DNA of 52,685 bases, counting the filler, from Jimgerdemannia flammicorona (lineage: Eukaryota): NCBI GenBank assembly GCA_003990765.1. It is 2 parts of 2 records of this genome, joined end to end, with 100 filler letters (N's around TTAATTAATTAA, not from the genome) between each part and the next. Parts side by side here need not be neighbours in the genome. Positions count along the whole stretch, not along the records: positions 1 to 26,294 come from RBNJ01000738.1; 1 more part is not named here. One strand, given 5' to 3'. The position numbers and the translations under genes were made by a program. The notes beneath the pieces were generated by a model, which was given only the letters and a program-made list of their open reading frames with translations, did no database searches and was not told the origin of the DNA. Positions 1,866 to 52,685 of the stretch are shown here, piece by piece; the first letter of the stretch is position 1, and each line of letters opens with the position of its first letter.

Positions 1866-2115
1866 GATAAGCTTACTTATGTATTTAGGGTCTATTGTTT
1901 CTCCTTCTATAGTTATTCCTTATCTAGTGAGTCTAGACCTTAAGGTCAGTTAGATATAAGTTTCTTTAGATGGTTATATATATAGCTAGTCCTATACTTA
2001 GTATCATTGTTCTTCCAGGCTTAATAGATTATTTTTGTAATTATAAAAGTGATATTCTATATCTTCTTAGTGAGCTTTAATTGGGGGTTTGGCCTTGGAA
2101 TATAGCAAGATATAT
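1866..2115 (-). pseudogene. dUTPase domain remnant (family A)
   Basis: YSKAKPPIKAH*EDIEYHF (motif 1 region), IKPGRTMILV, and RSRLTR*GITIEGETIDPKYISKL, which reads as a transition-decayed RSGLA..G...G.IDP.Y.GEL (motifs 2-3). Confidence 0.75.
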
Positions 2116-13419: not shown

Positions 13420-15250
13420 TATATAATTCTCTATAAGACTTATTTTCTTAGTATATTTCTTAAACTTATATAGGTCTCAGAAGAGCTTTAGTAAGTAAAT
13501 CTGTAATTATATACTTCATAGAAATATATTTTAAGTATATAGTTCTGCTTTCTATATATTTCTTTATACATATAATAGTATTATATATTAATATATTGTA
13601 TTTTGCTATAATGAATAGAGTTCTTTGCTATAGTAATTATAGACTAATTATTCTAATAAATGAGTATAGAGTCTCTTGATCAAATCTGAGTTTCTTTAAT
13701 AGCTAGTATAGTCAAATGGCTTCTTTGACTACTATAAATAGTATATAATACTCTACTTATATAGATAATATTACTACTGAACTCTACTTATAAAACAACT
13801 TCTTTGTAATTTAATTAGAAGAAGTATCTAGTTGTAGATCAGTGATTATCTAAGTCTCTAGTCCAATTAGTATTATATATATCAGATAGTTGTATGCTCT
13901 TCTTATTATTTTTATTATTATTATTATTACTCTTACTCAATCTACTGAGAGTAAGTATATAGTACACCATCCTTTTAATATATCTAAAAATCCTCTTAAT
14001 AGAACTCTAATATAAATTATTATTACTTAATAAGTACTATATAATCTTATTTATAGTATAAAAAATGACATACCTTATTTCTAGTATAAGATATATATAT
14101 AAGAGAACTGACTGCTTATTAATAGAGAAATTAGTCTAGTTTTTATCATTATCAGCCTTGAGTATAATATCAGACTTTCTTAATTTTACCAAAGTTTCTA
14201 TAAAGATGTTTACTGACTTATATTTACTCATATTAAAATATTTGAGAATAGTGTGAGTATAAGTTAACTATAAGAGGTATACAGTATATAACCTCCTATC
14301 ATATATAATGGATATCCCTAAAAGAAAGAATGTATTACCTATATTAGTTATCTTTAATTTCTTATATAGGACTTCTTTGACTCAGTTAAGCTTGTCTTAT
14401 ATATAATGATCATAATATCATGCCCTCATATATTTATAAATGAAATTCAATTAGAATAATATTAAATATATATATATAGTTATCTGTTTTATAGTATATA
14501 AAGTCATTGTTAAGAAGATATATATTGATTTTTCTATTTCACAAATGAGCTATCTACTTAATACTATATAATTCTTTATATAATTTATATATGAGATCAT
14601 TGTTCTAACTATTATATAGTTCAAATTCTTATAGTTAGTAAATATATAGCTCTGTATCTATATTATTATTGAAAAAGACTATCTTTATATCTATCTGATG
14701 GATTTCCAGATTATATATATATATAGTACTAATTATAAGAAGTATTCTTAGTAAAATAATCTTAAATACTGGTAAAAATATCTCATCATAGTCTATATTA
14801 TAATATTGTAAATTATTCTTAGCAATAAAATAATCTTTATACCATTTTATACTTCTATAATTACTCTTATACTTAATTATATAGACTCACTATAATCTTA
14901 TAGCTTATTAATTAATTAGAAAAGATATCAGATCCTATATACTATTCTTAATAAGTGAATTAAACTCTTTATCTATGGCTTGCTTCTATATCTTATTATT
15001 AAAAGAAGTTATAGCTTTGTTATATATACTTGACTCACTAAAAGTTATAATAAATATATATCATATATCTCAGTATAGCTCATATAGTCCTTATATTAAG
15101 AGATCTTTAGTATATCTCAATAATTTTCTAAATTAGAATAAGTCTTATTCCTAAGCTTACTCTCTGACTTTTTCTTTCCTTTAATGGACTCTTCATCATC
15201 AGAAGTCTTGCTATCCTTATTCTCTATTATTCTTAGCTCAGATAACTCTG
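13420..15250 (-). pseudogene. Ty1/Copia RT-RNase H remnant, heavily mutated
   Basis: NIDYDEIFLPV (from GIDYDETFSPV, ~14770-14800), HQIDIKIVF (from HQMDVKTAF, ~14675-14700), KITNIGNTFFLLGISIIYDR, VEYYILFIVVKEAI*L (from AEY.A...AKEAIWL, ~13710-13760), DLLTKAL (~13485-13503). Boundaries approximate. Confidence 0.9.
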
Positions 15251-15254: not shown

Positions 15255-18200
15255 ATATATATAGTAGTTGAAATTAATTTTGCTATATTTGTAATATATA
15301 ACTATAATGTGGATGTTAAAGTAGAGGTCAGGATAGATAAATCTATCTAAATCTCCTCATTATATTCTTTTTTGTCAAATTATATATCTTGTAAGATTAC
15401 TATATAATATTTATATAGATTCCAGAGTTGATATGTCTTACTAGAATACTCAAGAAACATATGCTTATTTATAAGAGGCAGGGGTGCTGTGGCCTAGTTG
15501 ATAATAGTATTTCAAATATTAGCATAAATGCAATTGTAGACTTTAGTAATTATAGCTGAGTATATATATGAGAGTTGTAATTTATTGTTTTAGTTTATTA
15601 TAGTTCTCTGTTTTGACATACTATATGTTTAGTATATATACTTCTGATCTTGATTATTAAGGTTCTATTTTTATATATATTATATTTTATGACTTTTAGT
15701 TGACTCAGCTTCATGATCTGTAACTTTAGTTATACTTAGCTTTATGATCTTACATATGATTTCTGAATTTATTCTGAGGGTGAGGTGTGGATTCAGTGGC
15801 TTGAAGGTTATATACTTACAACTCTTCTCTTCTTAGTATTTAATATCCTCATTGAGTTCTTCTAATTTAGTCTAATATTATTACATCAATTAAATGGTCA
15901 AAAGTTTAGTAATATCCTTTTTTTCTCAGAAACTAATATACTTATCATTCAGTTATCTAATATATTGAATTTACATATTAAAGGTCATTTTAATGCTATA
16001 TACTAGAAGTGATTCTGATGTTATTTACTACTGGAGAATTTTCTATAAGAAATCTTCTTAAATATCTATACTTCATTTTTCCCTAGTATATAATATAAAG
16101 AGAATATGCTATCTTTCAGTTTTGCTATTTTTCTAGAGAGTTGGTATTTCTTTTATCTTAATTTACTAAGAGTGTAGCTGAGTTTTCATTTTTATTTATA
16201 ATATTTATAAAGATGCTTTTAACATTATTCAGGAGAAATAATATATATATAGTATAGTAATAATAGATATTAGAGTATTTTAACTAGTTGTTTGAAGAAT
16301 TAAATTCTTGAACTAAATCAGTAGTATTCTGGAGGTTTGTTCTGGGTTCCTATATAGCATCATAGATTGAATAGCCTTTTTATTTGATAAGGTATTCTAA
16401 GTAATTCTTGTGGTCACATTTGTTGAGAATTTGTTCAACTTCATATTTCTTATAGTCATTAACAGTAATAGGTACTGGTGGTTTTATAGTTTAATTTGGA
16501 AATAGTTTGTCATCATTTTCACTATATTATTTGAGATATTAAACATTGAAGATTAGGTGAATCTTGATGATATCTGGTAGGGCTAGTTCATAGGATATTA
16601 GAGAAACTTGCACAATAACTTCAAATGGTCTAATAAACTTATTATATAACTTTGTAGAATGTCTATGCTTGAGATTATCAACTCAGTATCCTCAGATATC
16701 TAGTAGATCTTTTTCACTGATATTAAATATTTCTTCTTAATAGTGTTAGTTGATATATTGAGATTGTTGGTTTTGAGCTTAAGATAGGTTTTCAATTGCT
16801 ATTTAGCTTAAGTTATGTATTCAGAGTAAGAATTCTTCAATAACTTCAATAGTGGAGAGTTTATCTATAATTCTTATAAGAGTTAGAGGAGTGTTTGAAT
16901 TTTGTTCTATAATGGGATCATTTTAAGAGAAGCTTGTTTGCTTTTATTATTAGCAAACTTAATTCCAGTAAGATATTTATACTAATTATCTTATCTATAG
17001 AAAACATAGTTCCTTAGTATTTGCTTTAGAGTTTGGTTAATTCTTTTAGTTTAGCCATTAGTTTTAGAGTAAAAGACTGTAGATAGTACTAGCTTTATTC
17101 TAAGATATGAGTGTAGGGCTTTTCAAAAATAGCTAGTGAATTTCAATTCTTAGTTACTAATAATAATCTTAGGAAGACTATGATAGTAGAAGATAAGAGT
17201 ATAGTAATTTCAGATACTATTATAGTTGTAGAGATAGGTACAAAGTGGGTTTATTTGTTAAGATAATCTATAAAGATAATAATTACATTCTTTCTATTCT
17301 TAGTTTAGGATAGTTGTATAGTAAAGTCTATAGAGATTTGTTCTCAATTGACAGATAATACTGGAATAGAGTGAAGTAGTCTAGGTTTTATCAGAGTTAA
17401 GGACTTATTGTATTGGCAGATATCACAAGAAGTGATATAGATCTTTAACTAGTCTGCCAGACAGGGTCAGTAGAAGTTTTGGGAGATAACTTTATAGCAT
17501 TTGTCAAAACCTAGATATCCAGCTATAGAGACATTATGATATTTAAACAGAATAGTCCTTTAGAGGTCTTTGTTATTAGGAATATATAATCTATTCTTGT
17601 AATAGATAGTATTGTCCTTCAATTGGTATTGATAATACTAAGAGTGCTTGTCAATATTATTACTACTCAGAATTTCTTGAAGTGTCTTTATTATTATTAT
17701 ATACTGTGATAATTTATTCCATAATAGAATTAATAATCAAGGTGAGAGTTTGTATAACTTTTTTAATTAGAGGTCTAGAGATTGTATCAGCAACAATATT
17801 TTCTTACTAGAGTAGTATTGAATTTTAAAGTCAAAATAGGTGAGAACTTTTATTCATCTGGCTTGCTTTTGAGAAAGAGTAGTCTGGGTCTTTATATTGA
17901 TCAATAATTTGTAGTCTATTAATATAGTGAAGTATACTTCTTTAAAATATGAATACTATTTGACCAGAGTGTCTACAATGGCTAAAATTTTCTTCTTATA
18001 GATAGTATAGTTACTTTTGATATTATTGAACTTATAAGAATGATAGACCACAGGGTGTTCTTCTTGCATAAGTACTGCTCCAAGAGCTGGATCAGAGATA
18101 TCAGTAGTAACTTTATATAATAGGGCAGAATTTACTACTTAAAGTACTAGAGTGGTTATCAGAATATCTTTTAGAGCTTAAAAGGTTATATCTTATTCAG

Positions 18201-20880
18201 GTCTCTATTTAACAAAGTTGTTGAAGTCTTTTTCTTGCTTTGTGGTCCAGGGTTGGTTTTCTTTTTTACTATACTTAGTCAATTAAGTAAGAGTATTAGT
18301 AATCTTAGCAAAGTTCATAATGAATTACTTTTAATAGTTTGCTAATTCTTGAAATAACAGAAGGTCTTTTAGCATTTTAGATCTGAGCCATTCCTTAATT
18401 ATAGATATTTTTCTGGGATCTACTTTGATTCTATTTAAAGTAATAATATATGTACTAAAGAAATTGAATTCCTTTAGAAGAAATTCACATTTGCTGAGCT
18501 TTACAAAGAGTTGGTTTTTTTTTCAGAGTTTCAGTAGTACTAGTTCAAAATGTTCAAGATATTTCTTAAGGGTTTTACTGAAGATCAGAATGTCATCAAT
18601 GTAGATAATAATAAATTTATCTGGATATGAATATAGAATAGTATTCATCAGAGTCTGAAAGATTGTGAAAGTATTAGTTAAACCAAAAGACATAACTAAG
18701 AACTCAAAATATCCATAGTGAGTTCAGAAGGCAGTTTTGTAGATATCTTCTTCTTTTATAATAATTTGTTAGTAATCATTTCATAGGTCAAAAGAGCTCA
18801 TAATTTATAGATTGATAAGCCTATTAAAGATTTCATAAATTCAGAGTAGTAGGCAATAGTTCTTGATAGTCAATTCATAGAGATCTCAGTAATCAATATA
18901 TATCTAGAGATCTCCTAATAAAGAGAACTAGTGTACTATATAGTAATATACTAGGTCTAATGAATTCTTGTTTTAGGAGTTTATCAATCTCTTTCTTGAG
19001 TATATCAATTTCTCTAGGAGACATATAGTAGATTGACTTAAAGGTTGGCTTGGTATCTAAAATAGTCTTGATTGTATAGTCAACTACTTATTGACTGATA
19101 GATCTTTGGAAAGTTTCTTTGAAAATATATCTTGAAATTTCTGAAGTAGGGGTCTGATATAACTATTAACTTTGAAAAAGTCTTTCCCAAGATTCTCAGA
19201 TTCTCCTTTGGATGAATATATGGAGTACCAAAGAGAGGATATTTCTTCACTAATTTCTTAAGTTGTAGTTTGTTGATATAAGTGATCTTTGGGCCAGAGT
19301 CACTACAGCTAAGTGGATTTCTTTTGTCTTATAGTTTGAAATTGTGGTATTCTTTCTTAATGGTCAAAGAATGATTCACTTAATCTATTATGAGGTTTTC
19401 TTATTTTAATCATAGTGTTCTAAGAATGATCTCATTGTCTGAGAGTAGTATAATTTAGAGAGTAATATATACTCAGTAGTCACTAATTCTAAAAAATAGG
19501 TTACAGACTTTCTTTCTAATAATATGTGAGGTTCAATTAGCAGTAGTAACTACTTGGGCTTATTATACTGGAGAGATCAGGACTTTAAGTCTATTGACTG
19601 TTTCTTTATTGATAAAATTGTCTAAGGTACTGCTGTCTATTATAATCTTAACAGAGGCTCAATTAATAAAAGCTTATAAGATAAGCAGTTTGTCTGATTT
19701 AATGATAGTAATTTCAATTATAAGAGGCTTCCTTCTGTTAGCTCTTCATTAGGCTAACTTATTGATATATGAGAAAAAATCATTGATTATTTAAGAAGAG
19801 TATATTCTAATACCATGAGGGTATCAGCCACTAGATACAAATCTATCTTTAATTTTTCTGTAGAATTATTCCTTCTTATTTGCAGTCAGTTGAGCTGGGG
19901 CTTTATTTGATAAGTCAAATTCTTTAAATTCTCAGATAGTAAATAGTAGTTCAGAGACTTCCTTAACTATCAGGGTCAACTCAATTTTCTTAAATAGGAT
20001 TTGAACAATATAGTAATTAATAGAGATTTTGAATAGTGTCTAACTATGATTCTTAATGAGAATAATGATTTCATCTGTATAATCTTTGTCAATAACTCCT
20101 ACTTCTACTAAGAGTTTTTTTAATACTAGACTGCTGCAATAACATATTCCTCTAACATGTTCTTCAGGAATTTGAATACTGAATTCTGTATAGACTTACT
20201 TAATTTCTCAATTAGAAATAGTAGCTTTTTCAGTTATATATAGATCATAACTAGCTGTCTTTTGGCTTCCTTTAGTAGAGGCCATAGCTGTTATCCTTAA
20301 CTTGAAAAAGTCTAGTGTTTGGTAGTCAGGTTTTTCAGGTGATATACAGTAGTGATAGTTGCTCATATTGTAGTTTGAGATTTTTGATTAGAGTAGATAT
20401 TGGCCATATATTCTCTCTTTTTGTAATAGAAGTATGCTCTACTTCTTTTGAGTTTATTTCTTTCCCCTTCTGTGAGTTTCTTGAAGATACTCAGCTAGGT
20501 AGGTTCAGAATTACAGAGTGTCCAAGAAGTAGATGTAGTAGGAGCTCTGAATGATTCATACTTAAGTTCTTCTTTCTTAATCTACAATTTTTCCTTATTA
20601 GGTCTATGAAATTGTTTTCAAGACAGAATTGGTCTAGCTATTAGAATTTGCTTGACCATAGTTTTGATTCTAATTAGGCACCTTTGTTGGTAATTATAAC
20701 CAACCAGATATTCTTATTCTTAGATCTTTCTTATGAGCCATTTTGGTAGTATATTGAATAAATAGTCTACTTTTATATTATTTTATACTTTGTTATTGGT
20801 AATATATCCTAGGCCAACAGTGTTCAGAAGGGACTCAAGTTTTGAATAGAAGGTTTCAAATTCTTCCTTATTATATATAT
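15255..20880 (-). mobile_element. Chromodomain-bearing Ty3/Gypsy element, family C copy 1 (gag-dUTPase-PR-RT-RH-INT-chromodomain, partial 3' LTR)
   Basis: RT YIDDILI (~18585-18605), RNase H and integrase motifs, chromodomain at 16305-16450, purine tract at 15821-15830, LTR start TGTAAG at 15820. Gag is interrupted at 20880 by family B. The LTR is truncated on the left near the Copia remnant. Confidence 0.92.
16305..16450 (-). pseudogene. Integrase C-terminal chromodomain
   Basis: KYEVEQILNKCDHKNYLEYLIK*KGYSIYDAI*EPRTNLQNTTDLVQEF matches the chromodomain pattern YEVE.I....YL.KWKGY....TWEP..NL. Confidence 0.9.
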
Positions 20881-22396
20881 TGTCACGTAGTGGTCACTGA
20901 GTCCTTCAAATATGCCAGATTCTCTTCAAGGTATATCTCTTAGACTAACTCAAGTTGTTATAAGCAAGTTCTTATTGGAGTGCCTTCCCAAGGTCTTATA
21001 GTCCTCAAACTTCTTATCTTTAACTATCTTGTTATCTCTTAGATTCTTGCAAGGAAGTATATGTAAGTGAAACTGGAACTGACTTTATTTTAGAGAAAAT
21101 AAGAGAGGTATTTATACAAAATATAATTCAATGATTGCTAAGATATAAAGCTAAATATAAATTCCAATAACTAAAACTACTAAGTTCCAGGGTCGGTACT
21201 GATGGTTGTACAGGTTCAGGATGCTGGTATTATTTAGTGTCACATCAAAATGCTAGTGCTAGAACAATTTCGTGTCACCTCAGAATATCAGTGCTGGCAT
21301 TATCCAGTGTAACAAAGAACTTAGAGCAGAAATTTCAGGACCATGGGGGCTTCTTCCTCATCATCTTCATCACTGAAGGAGATGAGGTCTGTGAATTCAT
21401 CATTTTCACATACTTCATTATGTGTCTTGCATATGTTGATGTCACATGGGATGATGTCATCACCAATGATGTCATCACATTCAGCTGTGGTAGGAAAATT
21501 GAGAACAAGATCTGGAGCTCTCCAGTCTATGAGGTTCTCTTCCACAAAATAGGAAACAAATGTGGGGTCTTGGGGAGGTCTAACCTGGATGCTTGGGCCT
21601 TGGAATACTGAGACCAATCCTTGTAGGAATTGGTCTGGGTTGTCCTGAAGGATCAGATACCAGAAGTCTTCTATTTCTTCACTGTTGAGAGTGATAGTGG
21701 ACTGGGCTTCTGTAGCCACCCTGGCTTCTAGTATATTGATACAGTGGGATGATAGGTCTCTGAAGTCTGAGACTCTAACATACTCCAAGTTGGGGATCAA
21801 CCATGGTGCATGCCTGAAGATCTGATGGATCTTCTTAGCTGTTCTTGTTTCGCATATATCCATGGGAGTGGCATCTTGTAGCTCTTGGGTGCTGGCCTGT
21901 GGGAACTCCCAGTAGAGGAGGTTTCCTATTTTGTACTCCTGCCACATTTAGAGGCATTCAGTAGCAATGGTGATCCTTGTTTCCATTTCACGGCAGTAGA
22001 GAATGAAGTGATAAGAGTCTGCAGTACTCAGGTTGACACTAGGAGTCCTTCTTGAGTGGGTCCTCATGGCTCTTCTGATGTCTTAGAACATCCTTTCCTT
22101 GACCGAGATACCTTGGTGATTCCTTGACCTTGAGGTTTGGCAGGCAGCAGACATTTTGTTTATGGTAAGTCTTTGAGCTATTTTGGGATTGGTGGTTCTT
22201 GTTGGTTGCTGCTACTGCAGTTCCTTGATCCTTCTTTTATATTCTTCAGGATGCTTGTGCTATGGTCACAATGACTCACAGTTGGTCATCATTGCTCATC
22301 TTGTATGCTGTATAATCTTCTTGTACTCTGATCTGGTGGCTTGCAAGGAAAGGCTGTCTCCTGTGCTGATGTTATTATTCTGGGGTCACTATTACA
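20881..22396 (-). repeat. Family B 3' LTR (~1.5 kb) containing a U3 ORF
   Basis: Minus strand begins TGTAAT right after the purine tract AGGAGGAAGA (22397-22406) and ends GTGACA at 20881. TATAAATA at 21109-21116, AATAAA at 21084-21089. Matches 49117-50583. The 5' boundary rests on the purine tract only. Confidence 0.75.
21321..22154 (-). pseudogene. Family B LTR-encoded ORF (~277 aa, unknown function, acidic C-terminus)
   Basis: One frame from MSAACQTSRS (aacaaaATG at 22154) through the 208-aa ORF 21321..21947. Its two internal TAA codons are CAA in the second copy (~50305 and ~50170). Confidence 0.8.
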
Positions 22397-25300
22397 TCTT
22401 CCTCCTGAATAAGGATCTTCCTGAGCATCCTTATTCATTGATCCAGTCCTGAAAAATTTGCTGATCTCATAACCTCTGACAAGGGGTTGAAAAGTGGTAT
22501 TTATGGACTGGCATCTTCCCTTTGTATTTTGGCATGATGGTGAAGAGTCACTCCCTTCATATAGAGCAAGGGCCTGATTCTGATCTTGACCAATCAGTTG
22601 ACAGTTTGAACTCCTCTGACTTCGAAAGTCTCATAGATGAGTAGTTGCCAGTACTGTATCCCTTGGAGAATGGTCCAGACAGATAGCCTGCTGGTCATGG
22701 GATATGCTGTTACAATTCGCGGACTAGAACCTCATGGGCAGTCATCACGTTTTTCTTCTCTTGTATAGGTTCGTGGTACTTCTTGAGTCTGTTCCTATAT
22801 ACCATAGTAGGCAGTATGGTCTCTGAGATTTTTCTAAGCCAGAAGGTAGTTCTCTTGATATCTTATACATAGAAGGGTCCTTTCTATTTGGGCTCCAGTT
22901 TTTACGACCATGAGACTTCTACCATATTTCGATACAGTAGAACCTTTTCTCCAATTCAGATGGGTTCTAGGGCCTTGTGATTCTTTTCCACATTCTTCCT
23001 TATCAGCACTTGTGACTTGGTGATGTAATCTTCAGCCTTCTTCCTGATTTGGTGTAGTCTCCGGATTTCTGCATCAACCCATCTCCAAGTTAGGTCTAGA
23101 TTTGTGGCTGAGGTTCTAGCAGAATCTTCTTCTCTGAAGAGCAGCTCTCTTGAGGTAAAATGTGTGCTCTGTGACCATATGTCTCGTAGAACAGAGAGGG
23201 CAGTTGAGAGATAGTTATTCCAATTCTCATATAGCTCTGAGATCTTCACTAGGATGTTCTTGAAGGTCTTGTTGGTTCTCTCTATCTGTCCATTTCCTTG
23301 AGGGTGGTATGCAGTGGTCTTGATATGCTGGATCTTGTATTTCTGATATATTATCTTGTGGAATCTATTGACAAATTCTGTACTGCAGTCTGTTGTGATT
23401 TGCTTTGGTGTCTTGTAGCGGCAGACGATTTCTCAGTATAGGAAGTCAGCTATAGAGAGGGCATTGGCTTCTTGTAATACTCCTGCCTCTATCCATTTGG
23501 TGAAGAGATCTACAATAATTATAATATAGCAGTTTTCTGATAGTGTTACTGGTAGTGGTCCAATGATATTCATTGCGATGTGGTGGAAGGGAATAGGCTC
23601 AATTCTTGATGATCCGGGTGCCTGGTCTTGCTGATCTTATTTCTGTTTTTGGCACTTATCACACCCTTTGACAAATTGGTGCAGGTCTTCTTCCATCTTG
23701 GGCCACCACATGGTTCTTCTTGCCTTGTCATATATGTTGGTTCCTCCTAAGTGTCCTTGCTCATGTAATTCCTTCATTACTTGATACTTCTTGTGTTCAG
23801 ATATTACTAGCTTTCCTCCTTTTCTGAGTATAGTGTTGTCTAATTCAAACTGTTTCCAAGTCCAGTTGATGATGGTGATTATCCAGGGTTTGAGGTGGTT
23901 GGGCATCTTCTGCTACCTAAGATAGCTGATTAATCCATAGTATAGCTTCTTATTCATATTGAGTAGTCTTGATGGGGGTGTTTCGGGGTGTTCTTGAGAG
24001 TGCATCGGCATTGGTGTTGGTCTTTCCTGAGTGGTGCTTGACAGTACAGTCATACTCTTGCAGCCTGTAGATCCATCTGGCATATATTCCTTTAGGGTTC
24101 AGAGTGTGGAATAGCCAGGCAAGAGCAGAATGGTCTGTTTGAATAGTGAAGTATTTCCCAGCTAGGTAGTAGTGGAACTTGTCTACTGCCCAAACTACCA
24201 CTAAGCATTCAAGCTTGCATGACTCATAGTTCTGTTCTGCTCCATGGGTACCTCAGCTTACATAGGAGATGACATATTCATGTCCATCTTTCTTCTGAGC
24301 TAGGACTGCTCCAAGTCCTATAGTACTTACATCTGTCTGCAGGATGAATTCTAGGTTCCAGTCTGGTCTTCTGAGGATGGGTGCTTGGGTCAACCTGGTC
24401 TTGAGTTTATTGAAGGTTTCTTGGTACTCCTTGGTCTATTCGAATTTAGTCTCCTTCTTCAGTAGCTCATAGATAGGTGCTGTAATGTTGGAGTATCCTT
24501 TGATGAATCTTCTGTAGTAGCTGGTCAGTCCAAGGAAGGCATGGACTTCTGTAGTTGTTCTGGGTCTTGGGTAGGCTATAACAGCCTCGATCTTTATGGG
24601 TCTGTGTGGATTCCGGTCTGGTTGATGAGGTGTCCTAGGTAGGCAATTTCTTGAGCTGCAAACTTATATTTCTTGGGCTTGATATAGAGGTCATGCTCCT
24701 TGAGCCTCTTGAGGGCTAGCTGTATGTGATTGATATGTTCCTGTGTGGTATTACTGAAGATGAACACATCATCAACATAGACAAAGAGCCATTTTCCAAT
24801 CTCATTGCTGAAGACTCTATTTATCATTCGCTGGAAACTTGCTGGGGCATTGCACATTCCAAATGACATTCGCAGATAGATATAGGTAGTATCAGGTGTG
24901 ATGAAGGCTGATTTCTCACTAGCATCCTTGAGTGAGACTGATCTGATGAAAACCTGAGAACAGATCTAAGGTGGTGTAGTATTTGGCTTTACTTCCAAGG
25001 GTGGTAAGGATTTCTTGAATATTTGGCAAGAGCTGCCTATCCTTCTTGGTGATGGCATTGAGTTTCCTATAGTCAATACAGAGTCTTAGTGCAAACTCTC
25101 CAGGCTTGCTTCCTTTCTTTGAGGCTAGGACAATGGGTGAGGCCCAGGGGCTGATAGCTTGCTTGATGATTCTGGCTTCTTCCATTTCCTTGAGTTTGGC
25201 TTACAGCCACTCTCTGTAGGCAGGTGGTATGGGTCTGGCTTTCTGGTAGATAGGCTTGGTATCACCAGTGTCAACTTCATGGTAGTACTTGGGTTCTTGA

Positions 25301-26294
25301 TTGTAGATATCCCTAAAGTCTGTAGCAAGTACTCCTTCATTCTGGTACAGGATCTTAAGAAGTTGTTCCTCCAGGGGAAAGTTTTCTCCAATGGTATATG
25401 TGTGCTTATTCTGGTTCTTGTCTTTCTTGTGCTCAAGTTTGATAATCTTGGTAGTGGCATAGACTCTTCTTCCAGTAGATCCAAAGCCTTATTCTCCTCT
25501 CTTGGTCTTGATAAGTTCAATGGCTTCTATGATCTTGGGCTTCTTGATTTCGTGGATCAGCATCTGGCCAATCCTATCATGCTTCTTGACTTCGAAGGGG
25601 GTGGTGTGGTTGTGATTTCTAACTATGAGAAAAATCTCGCCAGTATAATCAGGGTCAATTACTCCTCCTTCAACTGAGATTTCACTTTTGGCCAGACAGC
25701 TCCTGGTCTTGATAATTCTGGCATGGTTTTCTGGCAACTTGACTCCAATTCCAGTGCCAAGTAGGGTGGTGGTCTGTGGTTTGAGGGAAGCATCTTGAAT
25801 GCTGGCAAGGTCCATTCCTATGGCTCCTTCAGTCTTATATTCTGGGATCTTGGCTTCAGGGTGAAACTTCTTGACCTTGAGGGTGATGTCTGATTCTTGT
25901 TCCTCCTCATCGTCACTGTCAGCTTGAAGCTCTGGGGGCTGGTCATCTTCTTTGGCTTTCCTTTTTGCTTCAGTGGCTTCTTGCTCATGTTTCTGTTGGC
26001 GGATTTTCCTGACTTCACTGATACAGGACCAGCAGTCATTCAGGTGTTTGGAGCAGTACATTCTAGTACCATGGAGGCATCTTCCTTGAGGGGTATACCC
26101 ATCAATGATCTTGTTATACCACTGCTCATCTGTGAGCTTAGGTATCTTGTTCTTGTTCTTGTTCACCGAGTGCATGAAGACCTCTGTGTCTTCTTCATCT
26201 CCTTCCTCCATGTCTGGTAGGACTCCTTTGTGGACATTGATAGAGACTTGTACCTTTCTTCCTCTGTAGTTGATCTGCATCTTCTGGGCATTGA

Positions 26295-26394
26295 NNNNNN
26301 NNNNNNNNNNNNNNNNNNNNNNNNNNNNNNNNNNNNNNTTAATTAATTAANNNNNNNNNNNNNNNNNNNNNNNNNNNNNNNNNNNNNNNNNNNN
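26295..26394. other. Assembly gap with an artificial all-frame stop linker
   Basis: N-run, TTAATTAATTAA (26339-26350), N-run. Adjacency across it is not guaranteed. Confidence 0.9.
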
Positions 26395-26430
<36 letters not shown>

Positions 26431-26431: not shown

Positions 26432-26443
26432 CCACTGCTACCA
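26431..26443 (-). promoter_or_regulatory. Primer-binding site (tRNA-iMet type)
   Basis: TGGTAGCAGTGGT 3 nt after the LTR end CTTACA. Complementary to a tRNA ending ...CTGCTACCA. Same sequence at 33589-33601 and a variant at ~40001-40013. Confidence 0.8.
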
Positions 26444-26446
26444 AGT

Positions 26447-28510
26447 TGTAAGAGGGTTGCTTTTTTAGAGTAACTGTTACGTAGTTCTAGAAGAGTTTCT
26501 GGAAGTTCTGGATATTCTAGAAGACTGTTTTCTTTATAGTCAAGCTCAATTTTGTATAGAGTACATCCTCTACACTTATTGATTTCAAGATCAGGTTGAT
26601 GTCTCAACCAAAGTCCTTTTTTGGACTAGTTCTGGATGTTCAGGATTTTCCGTATTTCAGGAAGTTCAAGAACCTAAGACCAGCTTAGTTGAATTGGCGT
26701 ATTGCTGTAGACAATACCTAATTAGAAAATTTCATGATGGGGTTAGGAGTGGACCTAATGGGGAGCAGATTTACTTAAGAGTGGTTTGTGGGTTATTTGA
26801 ATAGGTTTATTCACTATTCATGATATTGCTATACTAGGAGTAGTTGTGTGAGGGGATATTGTGGGGAAGTATTCAAGAATGTTCTTGTGTGTTTGAGTCT
26901 GAGATTCTGAGGTCTGGGGGAGGGGGTATTTATACTAGTGAGGGGCTATCTGGACTATATTAGATATTGGATGTAGCACTAAGTGCTTTACTGAGTTGGA
27001 ATGCAGTCATATAGTATAAGTGTGATCTGACATGTCAAGAGATCGTCTGACTGCTGAGTTAGTTCACAGTCATATTGTATAAGGCTAATCTAACTATACT
27101 ATGACTGCTAGGCTATTTATGGGTTTAGGCGCTGTCTGGGTAGTCCTTGATGACATCACCATCAATTGCATCATCTCTGATAAAGTAGTCATCTAGGAAG
27201 AGTGGTTCACAGATTACTTCTCCTTGTTCACTGAGGTAATAATACATTGAAACTTCATCACCATCCCACAGGATAGCATCATCTGTCTCATATGCTGGAT
27301 ATGGTGTTGGTGGGTGAAGGAGGGGTACATTATCTTCACTTTCATCAGATTTGCTATCTGCATACCTTCTGTAGGTTATAGCACTATGAGTCACAGGGTT
27401 GTAGTAAGCTGGTGGCTGTGGTTCATGTCACTCATATTCAGATGGTGGGGTGGTTGGTTCAATCTCAAGGGTTGTCTGAAGATACAGGTTATGTTCTCCA
27501 GTCTCTTCATTGTAGTTGAAGTAATCAGGGGTGAATGCTGGTTGGTATTCATGCTAGTGATCATTGTCCCAATAAGTCTCGTATGCTGTTATGAATTATT
27601 GTAAGTTTATCAGCAAGATTGGCGGTGTGATCAGGGTTGGCAGAGATCCTTGGCTAGAGGTCATATTGGTATCAGAGGGATCATTGTCTTCTGCTTTGTC
27701 TTCATCGAAGTGGATTATATTGTAGATGTCCTTCATGATGTATCCAACTTGGGGCATTTGTAGGATGTGATCATTGGGGTGTGGGAAGGTTCTGTCTGTA
27801 GTTTCGATGTACTCGAGGTACTTCTGGTTGAGTTCTTGTATCATGTCATTGATTTGACCATAGGACAGGGTAGTAACCATTTTGCTGGTAGTAACTCAGA
27901 GGTGGGGAATAATGGTACTGTACTCATAGAAGAGTTCTCGATGTTTGCAGGCGATGAGCTTCTGGTGTTGAGACATCTTGGTAATGTCTGTATCGTGGTA
28001 GTGTTTGACCATGTCTTTCAGGAGGCAGCCGATCTGGTAGTAGCTTGAGATTTGTCCAATTCGGTGGGCCTCGCTAAGCATGTTCAGAGTATTTCATTGG
28101 GCTTCCACAAAGTAGAGGGGTGCTAGGCTATAGATATTCATGAGGGGCAGAGGGAGTGTGACTCAGTTGACAATGGCATTCCAAATGTCAGCATGGATAT
28201 GGGTATAGATCTCGGTGGTCATGTTTGTGTGTTTAGAAGTTGTGGTTATTGTTTGTTTTGGTTCTCTGATTTGATGTGTCTCAGTGCTCAGTATATATGC
28301 ATTTGGTCCTAATTGGTAAGATTCCATTTGTGTAAATCTTGTGTTCTGTGACTTCGTATTGACTCAGCTTTGTATGCTGTAACTTTGGTTTGACTCAGCT
28401 TTGTGATCAAGCAGGTGATTTCCAGATTTGTTCAGAGGTCACGTGTGATTTCAGTGGCTTGTTCAGAGGGTAACATGTAATTTTGGTAACTTGGAGGTTG
28501 TGTGCTTATA
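26447..28510 (-). repeat. Family C 5' LTR (~2.06 kb) containing a U3 ORF
   Basis: Termini TATAAG (from TGTAAG)...CTTACA, followed by the PBS. TATAAATA at 26927-26934. Colinear with 33605-35646. Confidence 0.9.
27125..28222 (-). pseudogene. Family C LTR-encoded ORF (~365 aa, unknown function)
   Basis: ORF-track pieces 27896..28081, 27596..27880 and 27125..27394 share one frame from the ATG at 28222. The stops at 27896 (TGA) and 27596 (TAA) are CGA and CAA in the copy at 34301-35389. Confidence 0.85.
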
Positions 28511-28527: not shown

Positions 28528-28728
28528 ATGGTATATATCTGAAGATCTGATAAATCTTCTTAGCTATCCTTACTTCTTATATATTCATATGTAGAAGTGG
28601 TATCTTATAACTCTTGGAGACTAGTCTATGAGAACTCCTAGTAGAGAAGGTTTCTTATTTCATACTCCTATCATATTTGGAGATATTTGATAGCAATAGT
28701 GATCCTTGTTTTCATCTCACAGTGATAG
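28528..28728 (-). repeat. Fragment of a third family B LTR/U3 ORF
   Basis: Aligns by eye to ~21802-22000. Cut by the family C LTR starting at 28729. Confidence 0.8.
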
Positions 28729-30210
28729 TGTAAGAGAGTTGCTTTTTTGGATAACTGTTACATAGTTCTGGAAGGGTTTTCTAGAGGTTCTGGAAGACTG
28801 TTTTCTTATGGTCAAGATCAATTTCATATGGAGTATGTTCTCTATACTTATTGATTTTAAGTTCGAGTTGATGTCTCAACCAAAGTCCTTTTTTGGACTA
28901 GTTCTGGATGTTCAGGATTTTCCATATTTCAGGAAGTTTAAGAAACTAAGACCAGCTTAGTTGAATTGGTGTATCACTGCAGACAATACCCAATTAGGAA
29001 ATTTCATGATAGGGTTAGGAGTGGGACCTAATGGTAAGTAGATTTACTTAAGAGTGGTTTGTGGGTTATTAAATAGGTTTATTCGCTATTCATGATATTA
29101 CTATACTAGGAGTAGTTGTGTAAAGGGATATTGTGGGGAAGTGCTCAGGAGTTGTTATGTTCGGATTGTTGAGGTCTGAGATTCTGAGGTCCGGGAGAGG
29201 GGGTATTTATACTAGTGAGGGGCTATCTGGACTATACTAGATATGGATGTAGCACTAAGTGCTTTGCTGAGTCGGAATGCAGTCACATAGTACAAGTGTG
29301 ATCTGATACATATATCAAGAGATCGTCTGACTGCTGAGTCAGTTCACAGTCACATCGTACAAGGCTAATCTAACTATACTATGACTGCTAGGCTATTTAT
29401 AGGTTTAGACACTATCTAGATAGTCTTTGATGATATTACTATTAATGACATCATCACTGGCAAAGTCTGAGCAGTTTTCTAACTTCTGACATCATTAGTT
29501 TCAAAATGTCATTACTTCTATCTCTTGCAAGATTAAGGCTATCCTTGGTGGCAGTGGTTGTACAAGAATAACAGGTCTTGGTTCTCTTTTTTTTTGGTCT
29601 GCTGGTGCATTTGTGAGGACTGGCCATTCTTGTCTAGGGCAAGGACTCCCAATGTTATGGCTTTGGGTTTGAACCTCTCGGAAATGATATTTTCTATAAT
29701 CCGAGGCAATTTCTAGTAGTAATATCTGTCACATGGATGGCTTGAGATTGGTTTCAATGATGTCAGCTTTCTTGAGTTCAGATGAAGTGTCTGTCACTCT
29801 CCAATGGAGGTGATACAGATAGAGCAAATGGAGTTGTTCAAATGTGTTTTGCTTCTGCTAAGTAATGAGATCTTGTATAGTTACAGTGTATCTTAGTCTT
29901 GAGTTGATAAGTATAGTTCATGAACCTTTTGGTAAATGGGATAGGGTTCTTCTTGTCTCAATTTGAGTTTGGTACTTTCAGTTTCCTTTTGTAATAGTAT
30001 AGTACACCAAACTAGTTATAGCAGTTCAGAGTCAGTCTTATGGTTGTAGTACTTCTTCTAGTATTCTTGTATCTTGGTGGTGGGTTCTCATGCTTGCTGG
30101 CATATTTCGTGTAACCAGATGATCTCTTGTTTTGTAGTCTCACATGTGGTTTCCAAATTAGTTCTGAGGATACCATATAATTTTAGTGGCTTGGAGGTTG
30201 TGTGCTTACA
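28729..30210 (-). repeat. Family C 3' LTR variant (~1.48 kb) with an alternative U3 cargo
   Basis: TGTAAG...CTTACA termini. Homologous to the other family C LTRs over 28729-29455 and ~30145-30210 only. Confidence 0.85.
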
Positions 30211-33604: not shown

Positions 33605-35646
33605 TGTTAGAGAGTTGCTTTTTAGGGTAACCATTATGTAGTTCTGAAAGAGTTTTCTGGAAGTTCTGGATGTTCTGGATGTTCTGGAAGACCATTTTCT
33701 TATGGTCAAGATCAATTTTATATAGAGTACATCCTCTATGCTTATTGATTTCAAGTTTGGGTTAGAGTCTCAATCAAGTCCTTTTTCAGACTAGTTCTGG
33801 ATATTCAGGATTTTCTGTATTTCAGGGATTTCAAAAAACTAAGACCAGCTTAGTTGAATTGGCATATCACTGCAGACAATACCCAATTAGGAAATTTTGT
33901 GATGGAGTTAGGAGTGGGACCTAATGAGGAGTGGATTTTACTTAAGAGTAGTTTGTGGATTATTAAATAGGTTTATTTACTATTCATGATATTGCTATAC
34001 TAGGAGTAGTTGTGTGAAGGGATATTGTGGAGAAGTGCTCAGGAGTTGTATTCAGATTGTTCAAGTCCTTCGAGTCTGAGATTCTGAGGTCTGGGGGAGG
34101 GGGTATTTATACTAGTGAGGGGCTATCTGGACTATGCTGAATATGGATATAGCACTAAGTGCCTTGCTGAGTCAGAATACAGTCATGTAGTACAAGTGTG
34201 ATCTGATATGTCAAGAGATTATCTGACTGCTGAGTCAGTTCACAGTCACATCGTATAAGGCTAATCTAACTATACTATGACTGCTAAGCTATTTATAGGT
34301 TTAGACACAGTCTTTGATGACATCACCATCAATGACATCATCTCTGATGAAATAGTCATTTAGGAAAAGTGGTTCACAGATTACTTCTCCTTGTTCGCTA
34401 AGGTAATAATATATTGAAACTTCATCACTATCCTACAGAATAGCATCATCTGTCTTGTATGCTGGATAAGGTGTTGGTGGGTAAAGGAAAGGTGCATTGT
34501 CTTTGCTTTTATCAGATTCACTGTCTGCATATCTTCTGTAGGTTACAGTACTATGAGTCATGGAATTGTAGTAAGCTGGTGGCTGTAGTTCATGCCACTT
34601 GTACTCAAGTGGTAGAGTGGTTGGTTTAATCTCGAGGGTTGTCTGGAGGTACAGGTTGTGTTCTCTGGTCTCTTTATTGTAGTTAAAGTTATCAGAGATA
34701 AATACAGATTAGTATTCATGCCAGTAATCATTGTCCCAATAAGTCTTGTATGCTGTTATGAATTGTTGTAAGTTCATCAGCAAGGTTGGTGGTGTGATCA
34801 GGGTTGGCAGGGATCCTTGGCTTGAGGTCATGTCAGCATCAGAGGGATTATTGTCTTCTACTTTATCTTCATCAAAGTGGATTATATCATAGATGTCCTT
34901 TATGGCATATCCGACTTGGAGCATTTGTAGGATATGATCATTGGGGTGTGGGAAGGTTCTGTCTGTAGTTTCAACGTACTCGAGGTACTTGTGGTTGAGT
35001 TCTAGTATCATGTCATCAATTTGGCCATAGGACAGGATAGCAACCATTTTGACTGTAGTAACTCGGAGGTAGGGGATAACAGTGCTATACTTGTAGAAGA
35101 GTTCTCTGTGTTTGCAGACAATGAGTTTCTGGTGTTAAGACATCTGGGTAATGTCTGTATCATAGTAGTGTTCGACTATGTCTTCCAGGAGGTGGCCGAT
35201 CTGGTAGTAGCTTGAGATTTGTCTGATTCGGTGGGCCTCATTAAGCATATTCAGGGTGTTCCATCGGGCTTCTACAAAGTAGAGGGGTGCTAGACTATGG
35301 ATATTCATGAGGGGCAGAGGGGGTGTGGCTTGGTTGATAATGGCATTCCAAATGTCAGCACAGATATAGTTGTAGATTTCAGTGGTCATATTTGTATGTT
35401 TGAAAGTTGTGGTTTGTTGTTTGTTTTAGTTCTCTGTCTTGATGCATCTCAGTGCTTGGTATATATGCATTTGGTCCTAATTGGTAAGATTCCGTTTGTG
35501 TGAATCTTATGTTCTGTGACTTCGTGTTGACTCAGCTTTATGCACTATGACTTCAGTTTAACTCAGCTTCATGATCAAGCAGGTAATTTCCAGATTTGTT
35601 CAGAGGTCATGTGTGATTTTGGTGGCTTAGAGGTTGTGCACTTACA
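33605..35646 (-). repeat. Family C 5' LTR (~2.04 kb) containing a U3 ORF
   Basis: TGTAAG start at 35646, CTAACA end at 33605, then PBS. Colinear with 26447-28510. Confidence 0.9.
34301..35389 (-). pseudogene. Family C LTR-encoded ORF, second copy (~362 aa)
   Basis: MTTEIYNYICADIWNAII... in a single frame to a stop at 34301, with an in-frame 9-bp deletion near the end. Stops at 35135 and 34709 are CAA in the other copy. Confidence 0.85.
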
Positions 35647-49116: not shown

Positions 49117-50583
49117 TGTCACGTAGTGGTCACTGAGTCCTTCAAATATGCCAAATTCTCTTTAAGGTATATCTCTTAGACTAACTCAAGTTTGTTATAA
49201 GCAAGTTCTTATTGGAGTGCCTTCCCAAGGTCTTATAGTCCTCAAACTTCTTATCTTTAAACTGTCTTGTTATTTCTTAGATTGCTTGCAAGAGATTGTA
49301 TATATTGCACTGAGTTGACTGACTTTATTTCAGAGGAAATAAGAGGAGTATTTATATAAAATATAATTCAATGGTTGCTAAGATATAAAGCTAAATATAA
49401 ATTCCAATAACTAAAATAAAATATCAGGACAGAAAAAACTGCTAAGTTCCAGGGTTGGTACTGATGGTTGTATAGGTTTAGGATACTGGTATAATTTAGT
49501 ATTATATCAGAATGCTAGTGCTGGTATTATTTAGTATAACTAAGAGACTTAAAGCAGAATGTTCAGGACTACAGAGGCTTCATCATCAGAGGTCAGGATG
49601 TCTTTGAAGGAGATGAGGTCTGTGAATTCATCATCATCATATGTTTCACATGCTTCATTATGTATCTCATATATATTATGTAGGATGACGTCATCAGTGA
49701 TGATGTCATCATATTTAGCAGTGGGAAGGAGGTCTGGTGCTCTCCAGTCTATAAGGTTCTCTTCCACAAAATAGAGAACAAATGTGAGGTCTTGGGGAGA
49801 TCTAACCTGGATGCTTGGGCCTTGGAATACTGAGATCAATCCTTACAGAAATTGGTCTGGGTTGTCCTGAAGGATGGGATTCCAGAAGTCTTCTACTTCA
49901 TCACTATTGAGAGTGATAGTGGACTGGGCTTCTGTAGCCACCCTGGCTTCTAGTGCATTGATACAGTGGGATGACAGGTCTCTGAAATCTGAGACTCTAA
50001 CATACTCCAAGTTAGGGATCAACCATGGTACATGCCTGAAGATCTGATGGATCTTCTTAGCCATTCTTGCCTTGTGTATATTCATGGGAATAGCATCTTA
50101 TAGCTCTTGAGAGCTGGCCTGTGGGAACTCCCAGTAGAGGAGGTTTCCTATTTTATACTCCTGCTACATTTGGAGGTATTTGGTAGTAATGGTAATCCTT
50201 GTTTCCATTTTATAGTGGTAGAGGATATAGTGATAAGAGTCACCAGTACCCAGATTGACACTAGGAGTCCTTCTTGAGTGGGTCCTCATGGCTCTTCTGA
50301 TGTCTTGGAACATCTTCTCTTCAACTGAGATATCTTGGTGGTTCCTTGATCTTGAGGTTTGGTGAGCAGCAGATATTTCATTTATGGTAAGTCTTTGAGC
50401 TATTTTGAGATTAGTGGGTCTTGTTGGTTGCTGCTACTGTAGTTCCTTGATCCTTCTTTTATATTCCTCAGGATGCTTATACTGTGATCACAATGACTCA
50501 CAGTTAGTTATTATTGCTCATCTCATATGCCATATGATCTTCTTGTGCTCCAATCTGGTGACTTGCAAGGAAAGACTGTCTCC
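49117..50583 (-). repeat. Family B LTR, second copy with U3 ORF; interrupted near its 5' end by a LINE
   Basis: Colinear with 20881-22361. ORF pieces 49549..49839 and 49843..50085 match 21321..21947. Confidence 0.92.
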
Positions 50584-52685
50584 CATCAATATCCCTTTCT
50601 CTGGTAACATTCAGGTTACACAACCCTTTGGCAACACTTTTGACACAGTTTCTGGAGAAAAGCTACTAGTATCATGGCAACCAACAAGCATCCAGAGGTG
50701 CGTACTGGGCAGGGTGGCCCTGGAGTGTTTGAATGGCAGCAAGTGGGGAGAGGCCCCAGCTTGGGGGGAAGTATGAGGGACCTGCTGGTGGGGGGCTGCG
50801 GTGGAAGAGGGGGTGGAGCTGGAGGTCAAGGGTCTGGCAGGGTGAGCTTTGCAGAGAAGGTGAAGGGGGGTTGACAGGGAGCTGGACTGGAGAGCTAGCT
50901 AAGAGGGGGGAAGGTACCAGTGGCGGCTTCCAGGCAGCAACCGCTTGGAGGTGCCTCTCTGGAGGGCCATAGGAGTGGAGCTGGAGGGGTAGCAGCTGGG
51001 GCGGGGACTGCTGATGGGGGTGTGACAGGTGATCTGGAAAAAAATCTAGATGGGACTGCTGATGGTGAGCCGAGCAGTGGGAAGAGCATGAGGCCCAGGG
51101 ACCTGGCAGATGGTGTAACGGGACTGGCGGTGGCTCCGTTACTCAAGAAGTCGATCTCGGCATTCGCAGTCATGCTGTGCTTCCGGGGCTTAGCAGTTAC
51201 AGCAAAAATGGTATTGGGGCTTATTGCTAAGCAGGTGACAGGAGCAGCTTTGGTGAAGTTTCTGAAGGGACTGGAGGGGGTGGAGGTAGGATTTGAGGAG
51301 GTGGAACCACTGGAGGAGGCGCTGAAGGTTGGGTTAGTGGTTGGGGAGGTGTATGTTCCGATGGTGAGGTGTTTGAAATGGGATCCGAGGGTGGTCCAAC
51401 TGCTGGTGAAAGGAGTACCCATGGTGACGGTGATGGAGATGAGGAAGAGAGTGGAGGATGTCATGGCAGAGTATGGCAAGATGGTGGATATCGGATTCAG
51501 GGTCTGGGAAGGGACCGCACTCAGGACTGGGGATGTGGATGTGAGGATTCAGCTAGCTGGGAAAGAGGCTACCAGGAAGACGAGGGACTGGCCTTTGGTG
51601 TTGGTCTGGGGGGCTTTCCTGTGCAAGGTAACGCATGTGAAAGGGAGTGAAGAAGAGGAGGAAGATTTATTGGAAGCGCTGGAGGAGCTGGATGGGGCTG
51701 TGGAACGGCGAGCTAAGGTCTGGAAGACTTTCGAGGAGTCGACGCTCCTGGAGGTAGTGGATGGAAAGAGGATTCAAGTGGACAAGGTGCAGTGGGAAAG
51801 GGCTCAAGGGTGGAAGAGGCAGAAGGATTTGCTGGCCAAGCTGGGGGGTGGTCATCAGAAGGATGCGAGCATGAAGATAGGTACAGAAGGGGCCGAAGTG
51901 AGTGTCTGGGCTGGTGAGAGGAGTGGGAATGAAGGGGCAGGGTCTGGAAAGGCTAAGGAGGTGGAGATTAGAGACCTATATGCTGACGGCACCTTGGAGA
52001 TTTGGGATGACGGCTGGGAGAACTCCCCCTCCCCTTCCCCTCTAATTAGGCATGGCCCGGCTTCCAGGAACAAGCCTGGGGAGGATGTGATGATGCTGGG
52101 AACCCAGCAGGTGAAATTCAGCATCCCGGAGGCATTGGATGGGGACCAAGTGGGGGCAGCAGGAGAGGAGGAACTGGTAGATGTCCCAGAGGTGTGGGAT
52201 GAGGACGCAAGTGTGGGAGCAGACACCACAATGCTGGATGGAGGGAGGCCAGCGACCCCTGGTGGTAAGGAGGTGGGGAACCTACTTTGGATGTGCTGGA
52301 TGATGAATAACCTGGTGTCAGACAAGCTGGGGGAGGTGGACTTGCGTGGGATGGGTGATGAGCATTGGACGAGAATTTTGCAGGGGGAAGGGGTGGCGAT
52401 GGCACTGAAGGTGGAAATTCTTGCGGTGTACCTGGCGGAGGAAGGGTATGAGATGGATAAGGAGAGGGAGGCGGAGTTGGCAGTGGTCGCTGGGGAGAAG
52501 GCTGAGTACTGTTGGAACAGACATCATGGGTTGCAACTTTGGCAGGAGGCTTGCATCGAGTACCGTGAGGAGTTTGAGGAGAAGGCTGATGAGGAGATGA
52601 ATGAGCTGTTGGCTGGACTGGAGGCTCAGAGGGCCGAAGAGGAGGAGGTGATGGCTGAACATAATCTGGACATGGCACAAGAGGA
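50584..52685 (+). mobile_element. Young L1/Tx1-like LINE, 5' end and ORF1 (runs off the window)
   Basis: 5' motif cctttc.ctggtaacatt.aggt.acaca is shared with the LINE end at 46132. ORF1 starts at 50674. CpGs are largely retained. Confidence 0.9.
50674..52685 (+). pseudogene. LINE ORF1 (>670 aa; RRM-like central region, acidic C-terminal half)
   Basis: One frame with only two stops (TGA 50872, TAG 50896), then open from 50899 to the window end, so it is missing from the ORF track. RRM-like segment QLLVKGVP...EDVMAEYGKMVDI...TGDVDVRI. Homologous to 45333..45641. Confidence 0.85.

Follow-up and report, generated by a model that had tools for sequence, protein, structure and literature searches.

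A protein gene probably located within the long terminal repeat of a dUTPase-bearing Ty3/gypsy family of Jimgerdemannia flammicorona

The present analysis concerns a stretch of about 1.5 kb (positions 20881-22396, minus strand) in DNA of the soil eukaryote Jimgerdemannia flammicorona (assembly GCA_003990765.1). It lies within a window of 52,685 nucleotides, this being the whole stretch of DNA that was analysed. The 1.5-kb stretch is quite probably the long terminal repeat (LTR) of a dUTPase-bearing Ty3/gypsy family, here called family B, and the U3 part of this repeat consists mostly of a gene of about 270-320 codons. That this frame represents a real, conserved protein gene is nearly certain, and the sequence evidence makes it very probable that the gene lies inside the LTR. 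The copy at 20881-22396 is dead: its frame is interrupted by two stops, and a contig end truncates the element. A sister family in the same window, called R2, has the same layout, and here it is seen directly: its gene-bearing LTR stands before a primer-binding site (PBS) and gag, and it also stands after a purine tract. The coordinates of all features are collected in Table 1.

The family B repeat and its gene

Integrase, purine tract and TGTAAT at 22396 follow one another in series, and the stretch combines the tract with the TG...CA ends of an LTR. These ends match each other as an imperfect terminal inverted repeat (TGT..TAGTG / CACTA..ACA). The polypurine tract AGGAGGAAGA is comparable with AAGAAGGGGAGAGT and AAGAAGAGAAGAGT, which are found ahead of the R2 LTRs at 30210 and 15820, respectively. 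The motifs that an initial annotation had placed in this repeat are all correctly located on the minus strand, up to the GTGACA ending at 20881, and its frame, its ATG at 22154 and the acidic tail DEFTDLISFSDEDDEEE were found as quoted. Ahead of the gene, TGAGTCA is a palindromic site which we take to be of the AP-1/GCN4 type. It is followed by the first of two TATA boxes, and GAATATAAAAG is invariant in the three aligned sequences, namely the copy described above (copy 1), a second copy in the window (copy 2) and the metagenome contig L001, which is 63% identical to copy 1. The first TATA box lies 80 nt ahead of the ATG in copy 1, as compared to 58 nt in L001. In all three sequences, TATAAATA, the second TATA box, precedes AATAAA by 18-19 nt.

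The product of the gene is basic at its N-terminus and acidic in its tail, with a predicted helical core between them. In copy 1, the frame is interrupted by in-frame stops at codons 24 and 69. With the stops read as X, a search of 5.8 billion proteins returned five relatives of the frame, including P0003, an intact protein of 271 amino acids with a query coverage of 100%. A profile search of 1.84 billion representatives yielded five proteins at E <= 1e-3, three of which were new and more distant (P0008, P0009, and P0010); P0009 is an intact relative of 342 amino acids. Because so few proteins reach this threshold among so many representatives, the family is small and lineage-restricted. L001 contains an intact frame of 323 codons in the same layout as copy 1, that is, TATAAAAG, ATG, frame, TATAAATA, and AATAAA 18 nt further on. 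The scan of metagenomes for related loci gave no locus with the alignment as query and one, L001, with P0002 as query, and none was found in the viral and genome collections.

The substitution pattern points in the same direction. The dN/dS ratio in frame is 0.12 between copy 1 and L001 (with dS saturated) and 0.38 between copies 1 and 2, whereas the values for the two other reading frames of these alignments are 0.73-1.64. No frameshift is present in copies 1 and 2 despite their divergence of 16%. The two copies differ by 181 transitions and 85 transversions, a spectrum that names no process. The frame might still have arisen by chance, or be the decayed remnant of gag or pol rather than a gene of its own, and the lack of any family or fold match, together with the stops in both window copies, could be read in this sense. 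Such an origin is nevertheless extremely improbable, in view of the intact relatives of 271, 323, and 342 residues, of the low dN/dS that is confined to the true frame, and of the absence of Pfam gag or pol domains in all six members; that longer fused forms were not found among longer proteins is weak evidence on the same side. As a separate observation, the part of the gene before the acidic tail (21410-21490) has almost no cover in any of the four public runs described below, and in-frame indels occur there between copies. This gap is read as a hypervariable tail region and not as an absence.

Copy 2 (49104-50583) is 84% identical to copy 1 over 1516 columns. The initial annotation had stated that it has sense codons where copy 1 has its two stops and keeps TGACTCA and the TATA box, and the alignment confirms this. 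In the orientation of the element, copy 2 retains TGAGTCA (50500-50494), TATAAAAG, TATAAATA, and AATAAA. It is without the first 35-40 nt or so, and the end of a GC-rich repeat adjoins at that place. A "TGTAAC" at about 50621 was considered as its start and rejected, as this stretch is the end of the GC-rich repeat, which also ends at 46137. Copy 2 is regarded as a solo or 3′ LTR, because (AT)n comes after it in place of a PBS.

Placement of the gene relative to the repeat ends

At its 20881 end, family B adjoins the gag-dUTPase-protease (PR) part of another element, called E, which belongs to the R2 family. In the homologous stretch 30383-32137, the position corresponding to 20881 falls in the middle of the gag frame. 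Position 20881 therefore abuts mid-gag sequence of element E, which indicates that B was inserted into the gag of E and that 20881 is a true element end.

Words of the family B LTR occur in 20 runs from 13 studies, mostly soil metagenomes, with two coded organisms. No run among these 20 is on record as RNA. Four of them (X1, X2, X4, and X7) were aligned to 20600-23000 at 80% likeness, the contigs being 150-400 nt long. Among the loose ends listed, those at position 20880 agree in a single consensus, which is represented by 10 contigs in X1 (agreement 1), one in X2 and one in X4 (122 letters). On the element strand, this consensus reads CTTGGTGCCCATTGG..., i.e., C-TTGGTGCCCATTGG / C-TTGGTGCCCATTGGCTAGTGATTCAAGAC after the LTR end, and CTTGGTGCCCATTGG resembles ACTTGGTAGCAGTGG, the PBS-like sequence of the R2 family. 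As it begins with TGG and is similar to the R2 sequence that stands before gag, CTTGGTGCCCATTGG may be the PBS of family B. As 12 contigs from three runs thus pass from 20881 into one shared PBS-like sequence, the LTR end appears to be present also in the 5′ position. A search pattern in which the LTR end is joined to the PBS-like sequence had no match in the genome and viral collections or in the window.

The other end of the repeat was also covered. The passage from integrase to LTR start is bridged, with at least 31 letters on each side, by records 12 and 13 of X2 and by record 24 of X4. A contig of X7 departs at 22389 into 255 unrelated letters, as would be expected of a 5′ or solo LTR.

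These data bear on an alternative arrangement, in which the frame is an ordinary extra open reading frame (ORF) 3′ of pol, the gene is internal, and the true LTR comprises the last 250-450 bp or so, with TATAAATA and AATAAA. The TATA box and the polyadenylation signal do lie within the last 240 bp, and a purine-rich run, GATGAAGATGATGAGGAAGAAG, is present at the end of the gene; this run is, however, not followed by a TG start with an inverted repeat, whereas a canonical purine tract and TGTAAT stand at 22396, with terminal repeats matching the LTR end. Plant elements with additional ORFs after pol are well known, to judge from the accessible text of PMC7264820. In the related R2 family, on the other hand, the homologous position is demonstrably within the LTR. 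The break of the X7 contig at 22389 also speaks against an internal gene, and the loose ends listed near 21260-21320 are variants of one local repeat and not junctions. Finally, in all four runs the depth summed over contigs is equal for the gene and the LTR end and is higher there than for the integrase (gene versus integrase: X1, 905-1611 versus 264-603; X2, 100-303 versus 22-105; X4, 18-92 versus 4-31; X7, 196-3170 versus 0-209), which is a weak hint, summed-contig depth not being copy number. Taken with its evidence on both sides, the arrangement with an ORF 3′ of pol is improbable.

Besides the nature of the depth values, several other points weigh against the reading given here. No single molecule joins the gene, its upstream flank and the family B PBS; the link of gene and PBS is unseen because the contigs measure 150-400 nt and the stop of the gene lies 440 nt from the LTR end. 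Copy 2 is truncated at its 5′ end, so that neither the start of a solo LTR nor a target duplication could be seen in it. The loose ends listed are 24 of 269, and breaks elsewhere could be hidden, while the loose end of X7 at 20878 enters a different sequence than those of the other three runs. The start sites, the poly(A) site and the two-promoter model set out below are predictions from motifs. As to the protein, none of the six members has a credible Pfam match (two have a weak match to ATG5_HBR, E 0.028), the PDB sequences gave no match to the profile at E <= 10, and Foldseek gave none against PDB at E <= 1e-3. Two AlphaFold models are mostly helical and have low pLDDT (predicted local distance difference test) values of 36.9 and 49.2. 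With these points included, the location of the family B gene within its LTR is still held to be very probable. One further joint, from 21797 to 20871, was recorded at low depth in X2 (one contig, depth 3).

The R2 family, the two proteins and the surrounding elements

The LTR of the R2 family measures 2.06 kb and has the ends TGTAAG...CTTACA (CTAACA in one copy). The initial annotation had assigned it to an element at 36-40 kb. This assignment was not borne out, because the R2 copy at 33605-35646 is inserted in that element and cuts its integrase about 310 nt past the core domain, with no purine tract; R2 has a family of its own, comprising 15460-20880 and 30211-33604. The two bodies, elements E and E2, share with the element at 36-40 kb the order capsid/gag, dUTPase, PR, reverse transcriptase (RT), RNase H, and integrase. 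Element E2 looks recombinant, as its LTRs are mostly unalike and its flanks differ (the integrase of another element on one side, an LTR-B fragment on the other). Its 3′ LTR (28729-30210) matches its 5′ LTR (33605-35646) only in the first 100 nt or so and the last 740 nt or so. The stretch 29466-30113 of the 3′ LTR is unrelated by blastn to the 5′ LTR, yet the C-terminal motif of the frame is kept.

In family B, the order RT, RNase H, integrase on the minus strand is that of Ty3/gypsy elements (Metaviridae). Its dUTPase, whose identity was confirmed by a protein-atlas search with the frame, ends in ..GFGSTG and continues directly into the RT N-terminus with no PR between them, and hence PR must be located upstream. 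The initial annotation was correct in that the order of pol domains differs, family B having dUTPase-RT and the two other families dUTPase-PR-RT. A dUTPase is present in all three gypsy families (25492-25857, 38478-38822, 31173-31624, and 20043-20195), in two positions relative to the protease. No Pfam match to a chromodomain was obtained in family B, whose integrase end is degenerate.

The proteins encoded in the B and R2 LTRs had been described as different, with no similarity between the two U3 ORFs apart from a short DD.I motif. The profile-to-profile comparison instead gave a weak, above-chance and colinear similarity, and the description as different proteins is doubtful. With hhalign, a profile-to-sequence comparison of the two families gave E 7.7e-4, and the comparison with the R2 profile, built from only three sequences (the two window copies and P0012), gave E 1.8e-4 and a probability of 48%, over 120 colinear columns near the N-terminus. 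The local hhalign score is 36.8, as compared to 15.1 for the reversed profile and to the scores of 200 column shuffles (median 13.9, maximum 25.5). BLASTP of P0009 against P0011, an R2 frame, gave E 0.003 in the same colinear region. When the B profile was searched with hmmsearch against the 887 ORFs of the window (at least 30 amino acids), the R2 piece was the best non-B match, at E 0.093. The acidic tails are also alike: in the last 70 residues, D+E versus K+R amount to 21 versus 4 in P0003 and to 19 versus 2 in P0013.

A common origin of the B and R2 LTR proteins is on the whole probable from these sequence comparisons, and a single old acquisition followed by divergence would then be the simpler account. 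Alternatively, unrelated genes were captured independently by the two families, and the gene-in-LTR layout is recurrent and convergent. This would agree with an identity of just about 20% over the 120 columns, with the modest hhalign probability and hmmsearch E value given above, and with the unlike order of the pol domains. It is, however, rather unlikely, since the score lies above all 200 shuffles and the reversed profile, the R2 piece is still the best non-B match of the 887 ORFs, and the BLASTP match falls at the same colinear place. Moreover, both frames start less than 250 nt from the LTR start and are followed by TATAAATA, with an acidic tail in each case, and the two families have in common the dUTPase, similar LTR ends (TGTAAT / TGTAAG) and PBS-like sequences. 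The recurrent gene-in-LTR architecture proposed initially is therefore retained insofar as a second gypsy family shares the layout, with R2 LTRs in 5′ and 3′ positions, whereas its independent capture in the two families is not supported, as the proteins align colinearly.

The window as a whole is made up of nested, decayed LTR retrotransposons from a eukaryotic genome, and its GC content varies from 23% to 52%. As it consists of two contigs, any structure read over the join at 26295-26394 is an artefact, and the 5′ half of the family B element is missing because its contig ends at 26294. Neither tRNA genes nor Rfam matches were found in the window. Two direct repeats of 326 bp (7646-7971 and 12099-12424, 92.6% identical) bracket a GC-rich body of 4 kb with a weak RVT_1 match; this pair is probably the short-LTR family without an ORF of the initial annotation. 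A fragment of RVT_2, the copia-type RT, is located at 14638-14886 on the minus strand, where the window is richest in AT. Repeats of high GC content (44-52%) and strong GC skew occupy 1-1868 and 40552-42392, 44878-46132 and 50594-51845 (inverted), and 50899-52683, and one of them holds an open frame of 595 codons which continues past the window edge and gave no match in Pfam. Between 19123-20880 and 30383-32137 (GC 30% versus 41%), the AT-rich copy shows 160 C>T and 109 G>A changes versus 43 T>C and 39 A>G, and about half of the CpA and TpG sites are mutated. This one-sided mutation looks like repeat-induced point mutation or deamination.

Table 1. Coordinates of the elements, genes and motifs in the window. 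PBS, primer-binding site; PR, protease; RT, reverse transcriptase.
Feature	Position	Strand	Remarks
Family B LTR (probable), 3′ position	20881..22396	-	TGTAAT start, GTGACA end
TGTAAT	22396-22391	-	family B LTR start
Polypurine tract AGGAGGAAGA	22397..22406	-	directly precedes LTR start
TGAGTCA	22272..22278	-	reads TGACTCA on + strand; 31 nt upstream of first TATA box
TATAAAAG (first TATA box)	22234..22241	-	putative promoter of LTR gene
LTR gene	21321..22154	-	278 codons including stop; ATG 22154-22152 in aacaaaATG
TATAAATA (second TATA box)	21109..21116	-	putative genomic-RNA promoter, end of U3
AATAAA	21084..21089	-	polyadenylation signal (motif)
Family B Ty3/gypsy internal part	22397..26294	-	cut at contig end
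Integrase	22959-23912	-	family B; Integrase_H2C2 23640-23912, rve_3 22959-23432
RNase H (RT_RNaseH)	23953-24435	-	family B; Pfam
RT (RVT_1)	24597-25200	-	family B; Pfam
dUTPase	25492-25857	-	family B; Pfam
Second LTR-B copy	49117..50588	-	frame 50376-49549, three in-frame stops, no ATG
Third LTR-B gene fragment	28528..28728	-	200 bp, between two R2 LTRs
R2 LTR, 5′ position	33605..35646	-	TGTAAG...CTAACA; frame 34301-35389, ~363 codons, 3 internal stops
PBS-like TTGGTAGCAGTGG, preceded by AC	33590-33602	-	after R2 LTR 33605-35646; then gag with CCHC knuckle, dUTPase, PR
R2 LTR, 5′ position	26447..28510	-	frame 27128-28222, ~365 codons, 6 internal stops
Same PBS-like sequence TTGGTAGCAGTGG	26432-26444	-	after R2 LTR 26447-28510; then contig end
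R2 LTR, 3′ position	28729-30210	-	AAGAAGGGGAGAGT then TGTAAG, after integrase end of element E2
R2 LTR start, 3′ position	15460..15820	-	AAGAAGAGAAGAGT then TGTAAG, after integrase end of element E; first ~30 frame codons, then cut
Element E gag-dUTPase-PR part	19123..20880	-	76% identical to 30383-32137
Assembly join	26295..26394		N44, TTAATTAATTAA, N44; adjoins poly-T run 26395-26427

Proposed working, known systems and significance

The ORF (22154-21321) lies upstream of TATAAATA (21116-21109), and the U3/R border is here placed from the LTR architecture, with the polyadenylation signal presumably at or just before the expected cap site. The order of the LTR would thus be promoter 1, gene, promoter 2, and shared terminator. 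Whether the gene has a promoter of its own is, on the motifs, an even call. If it has, the first promoter (TGAGTCA and TATAAAAG, 22278-22234) would drive a monocistronic mRNA that spans the gene, measures about 1.1 kb and ends at the AATAAA of the LTR, and the second promoter would start the genomic RNA about 25-30 nt downstream of TATAAATA. As this start would lie at or past AATAAA (21089-21084), the signal would be active at the 3′ LTR only. The genomic RNA would hold the gene once, in the 3′ U3, and reverse transcription would copy it to both LTRs. Each full element would consequently contain two copies of the gene, and a solo LTR would keep the unit of promoter, gene and terminator. Self-priming of the Tf1 type was considered and dropped, as the complement of the PBS-like sequence was not seen after the TATA box.

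The protein would be an accessory factor that aids the element. The first 45 residues of P0003 contain 10 K/R versus 2 D/E, and the acidic tail has hydrophobic-acidic motifs (DLISF, DDIIxDDII). The protein-atlas search with P0003 gave no match reaching 0.9 and no template modelling (TM) score reaching 0.5. A first guess, held with little confidence, is that the protein may be an activator of LTR transcription or a nuclear regulator; a second guess is a counter-silencing factor.

Among known systems, the closest in layout is sag, the "LTR ORF" of mouse mammary tumor virus (MMTV). It is a gene of about 300 codons within U3, as is proposed for family B, so that the genomic RNA holds one copy and the integrated DNA two, with the genomic promoter located downstream. 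The sag gene belongs to a vertebrate retrovirus and encodes a membrane superantigen. Conversely, the host of the family B gene is a Ty3/gypsy retrotransposon of a soil eukaryote, its protein has no match to any family, superantigens included, and shows a basic N-terminus and an acidic tail, and the gene is preceded by a conserved, putative TATA box of its own.

The Cassandra elements, which are terminal-repeat retrotransposons in miniature, carry a 5S rRNA-like gene in their LTRs (10.1101/2023.07.14.548913, PMC10886601). They would share with family B a separate gene-like unit with its own promoter, which is copied to both LTRs in each round. As described there, the Cassandra unit is a small RNA polymerase III unit in a non-autonomous element, whereas the unit of family B codes for a protein, has signals of the pol II type and belongs to an element of the autonomous type. 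The additional ORFs (aORFs) of plant elements (PMC7264820) and ORF0 of Retrosat2 (PMC3485330) are, in the excerpts available, comparable as extra, lineage-restricted and fast-evolving ORFs under weaker constraint than pol. They are described as lying between the LTRs, upstream of gag or downstream of pol, whereas the ORF of family B very probably lies inside the repeat. The wordings "within the LTR", "in the LTR" and "inside the LTR" have no occurrence in the accessible text of the aORF review (PMC7264820).

With regard to fungi, the available text of PMC2864245 describes gypsy elements (PosPlaTy3-3/-4/-5 and elements of Phanerochaete and Tuber) whose dUTPase has variable positions in the polyprotein, including between PR and RT, and draws "additional ORFs of unknown function" for some of the dUTPase-bearing ones. 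Compared by description only, they resemble the present families in the variable position of the dUTPase and differ from them in that this text mentions no LTR-internal gene. Along with the soil habitat, such dUTPases suggest that the host may be a fungus. Full-text phrase searches, with subscription journals and supplements outside their scope, gave no LTR retrotransposon whose repeats contain a protein gene and no LTR gene-cassette strategy.

Extra genes of LTR elements are known before gag or after pol, and LTR-internal genes in a few retroviruses such as MMTV. A conserved gene in a gypsy LTR would mean that a solo LTR, beyond being a promoter remnant, is possibly a gene with promoter and terminator. 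Annotation pipelines that limit the length of LTRs or filter for "no ORF in LTR" would misplace such elements. The family B gene also offers a testable system for the expression of a 3′ accessory gene without splicing in a retroelement. It further adds an orphan protein family, kept by purifying selection, that is accessible to tests of its part in retrotransposition or in silencing by the host. In its widest form, the proposal is that a whole clade of dUTPase-bearing gypsy elements uses its LTR as a gene cassette with its own promoter, a conserved accessory protein and a shared terminator, which derived from one ancestral acquisition, diverged almost beyond recognition, and supplies the protein in trans from solo LTRs. 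This is a tentative view, in which we place somewhat less than even confidence. If it is true, the solo LTRs left by recombination would be thousands of expressible copies of an accessory gene, from which the protein would be supplied in trans to the family.

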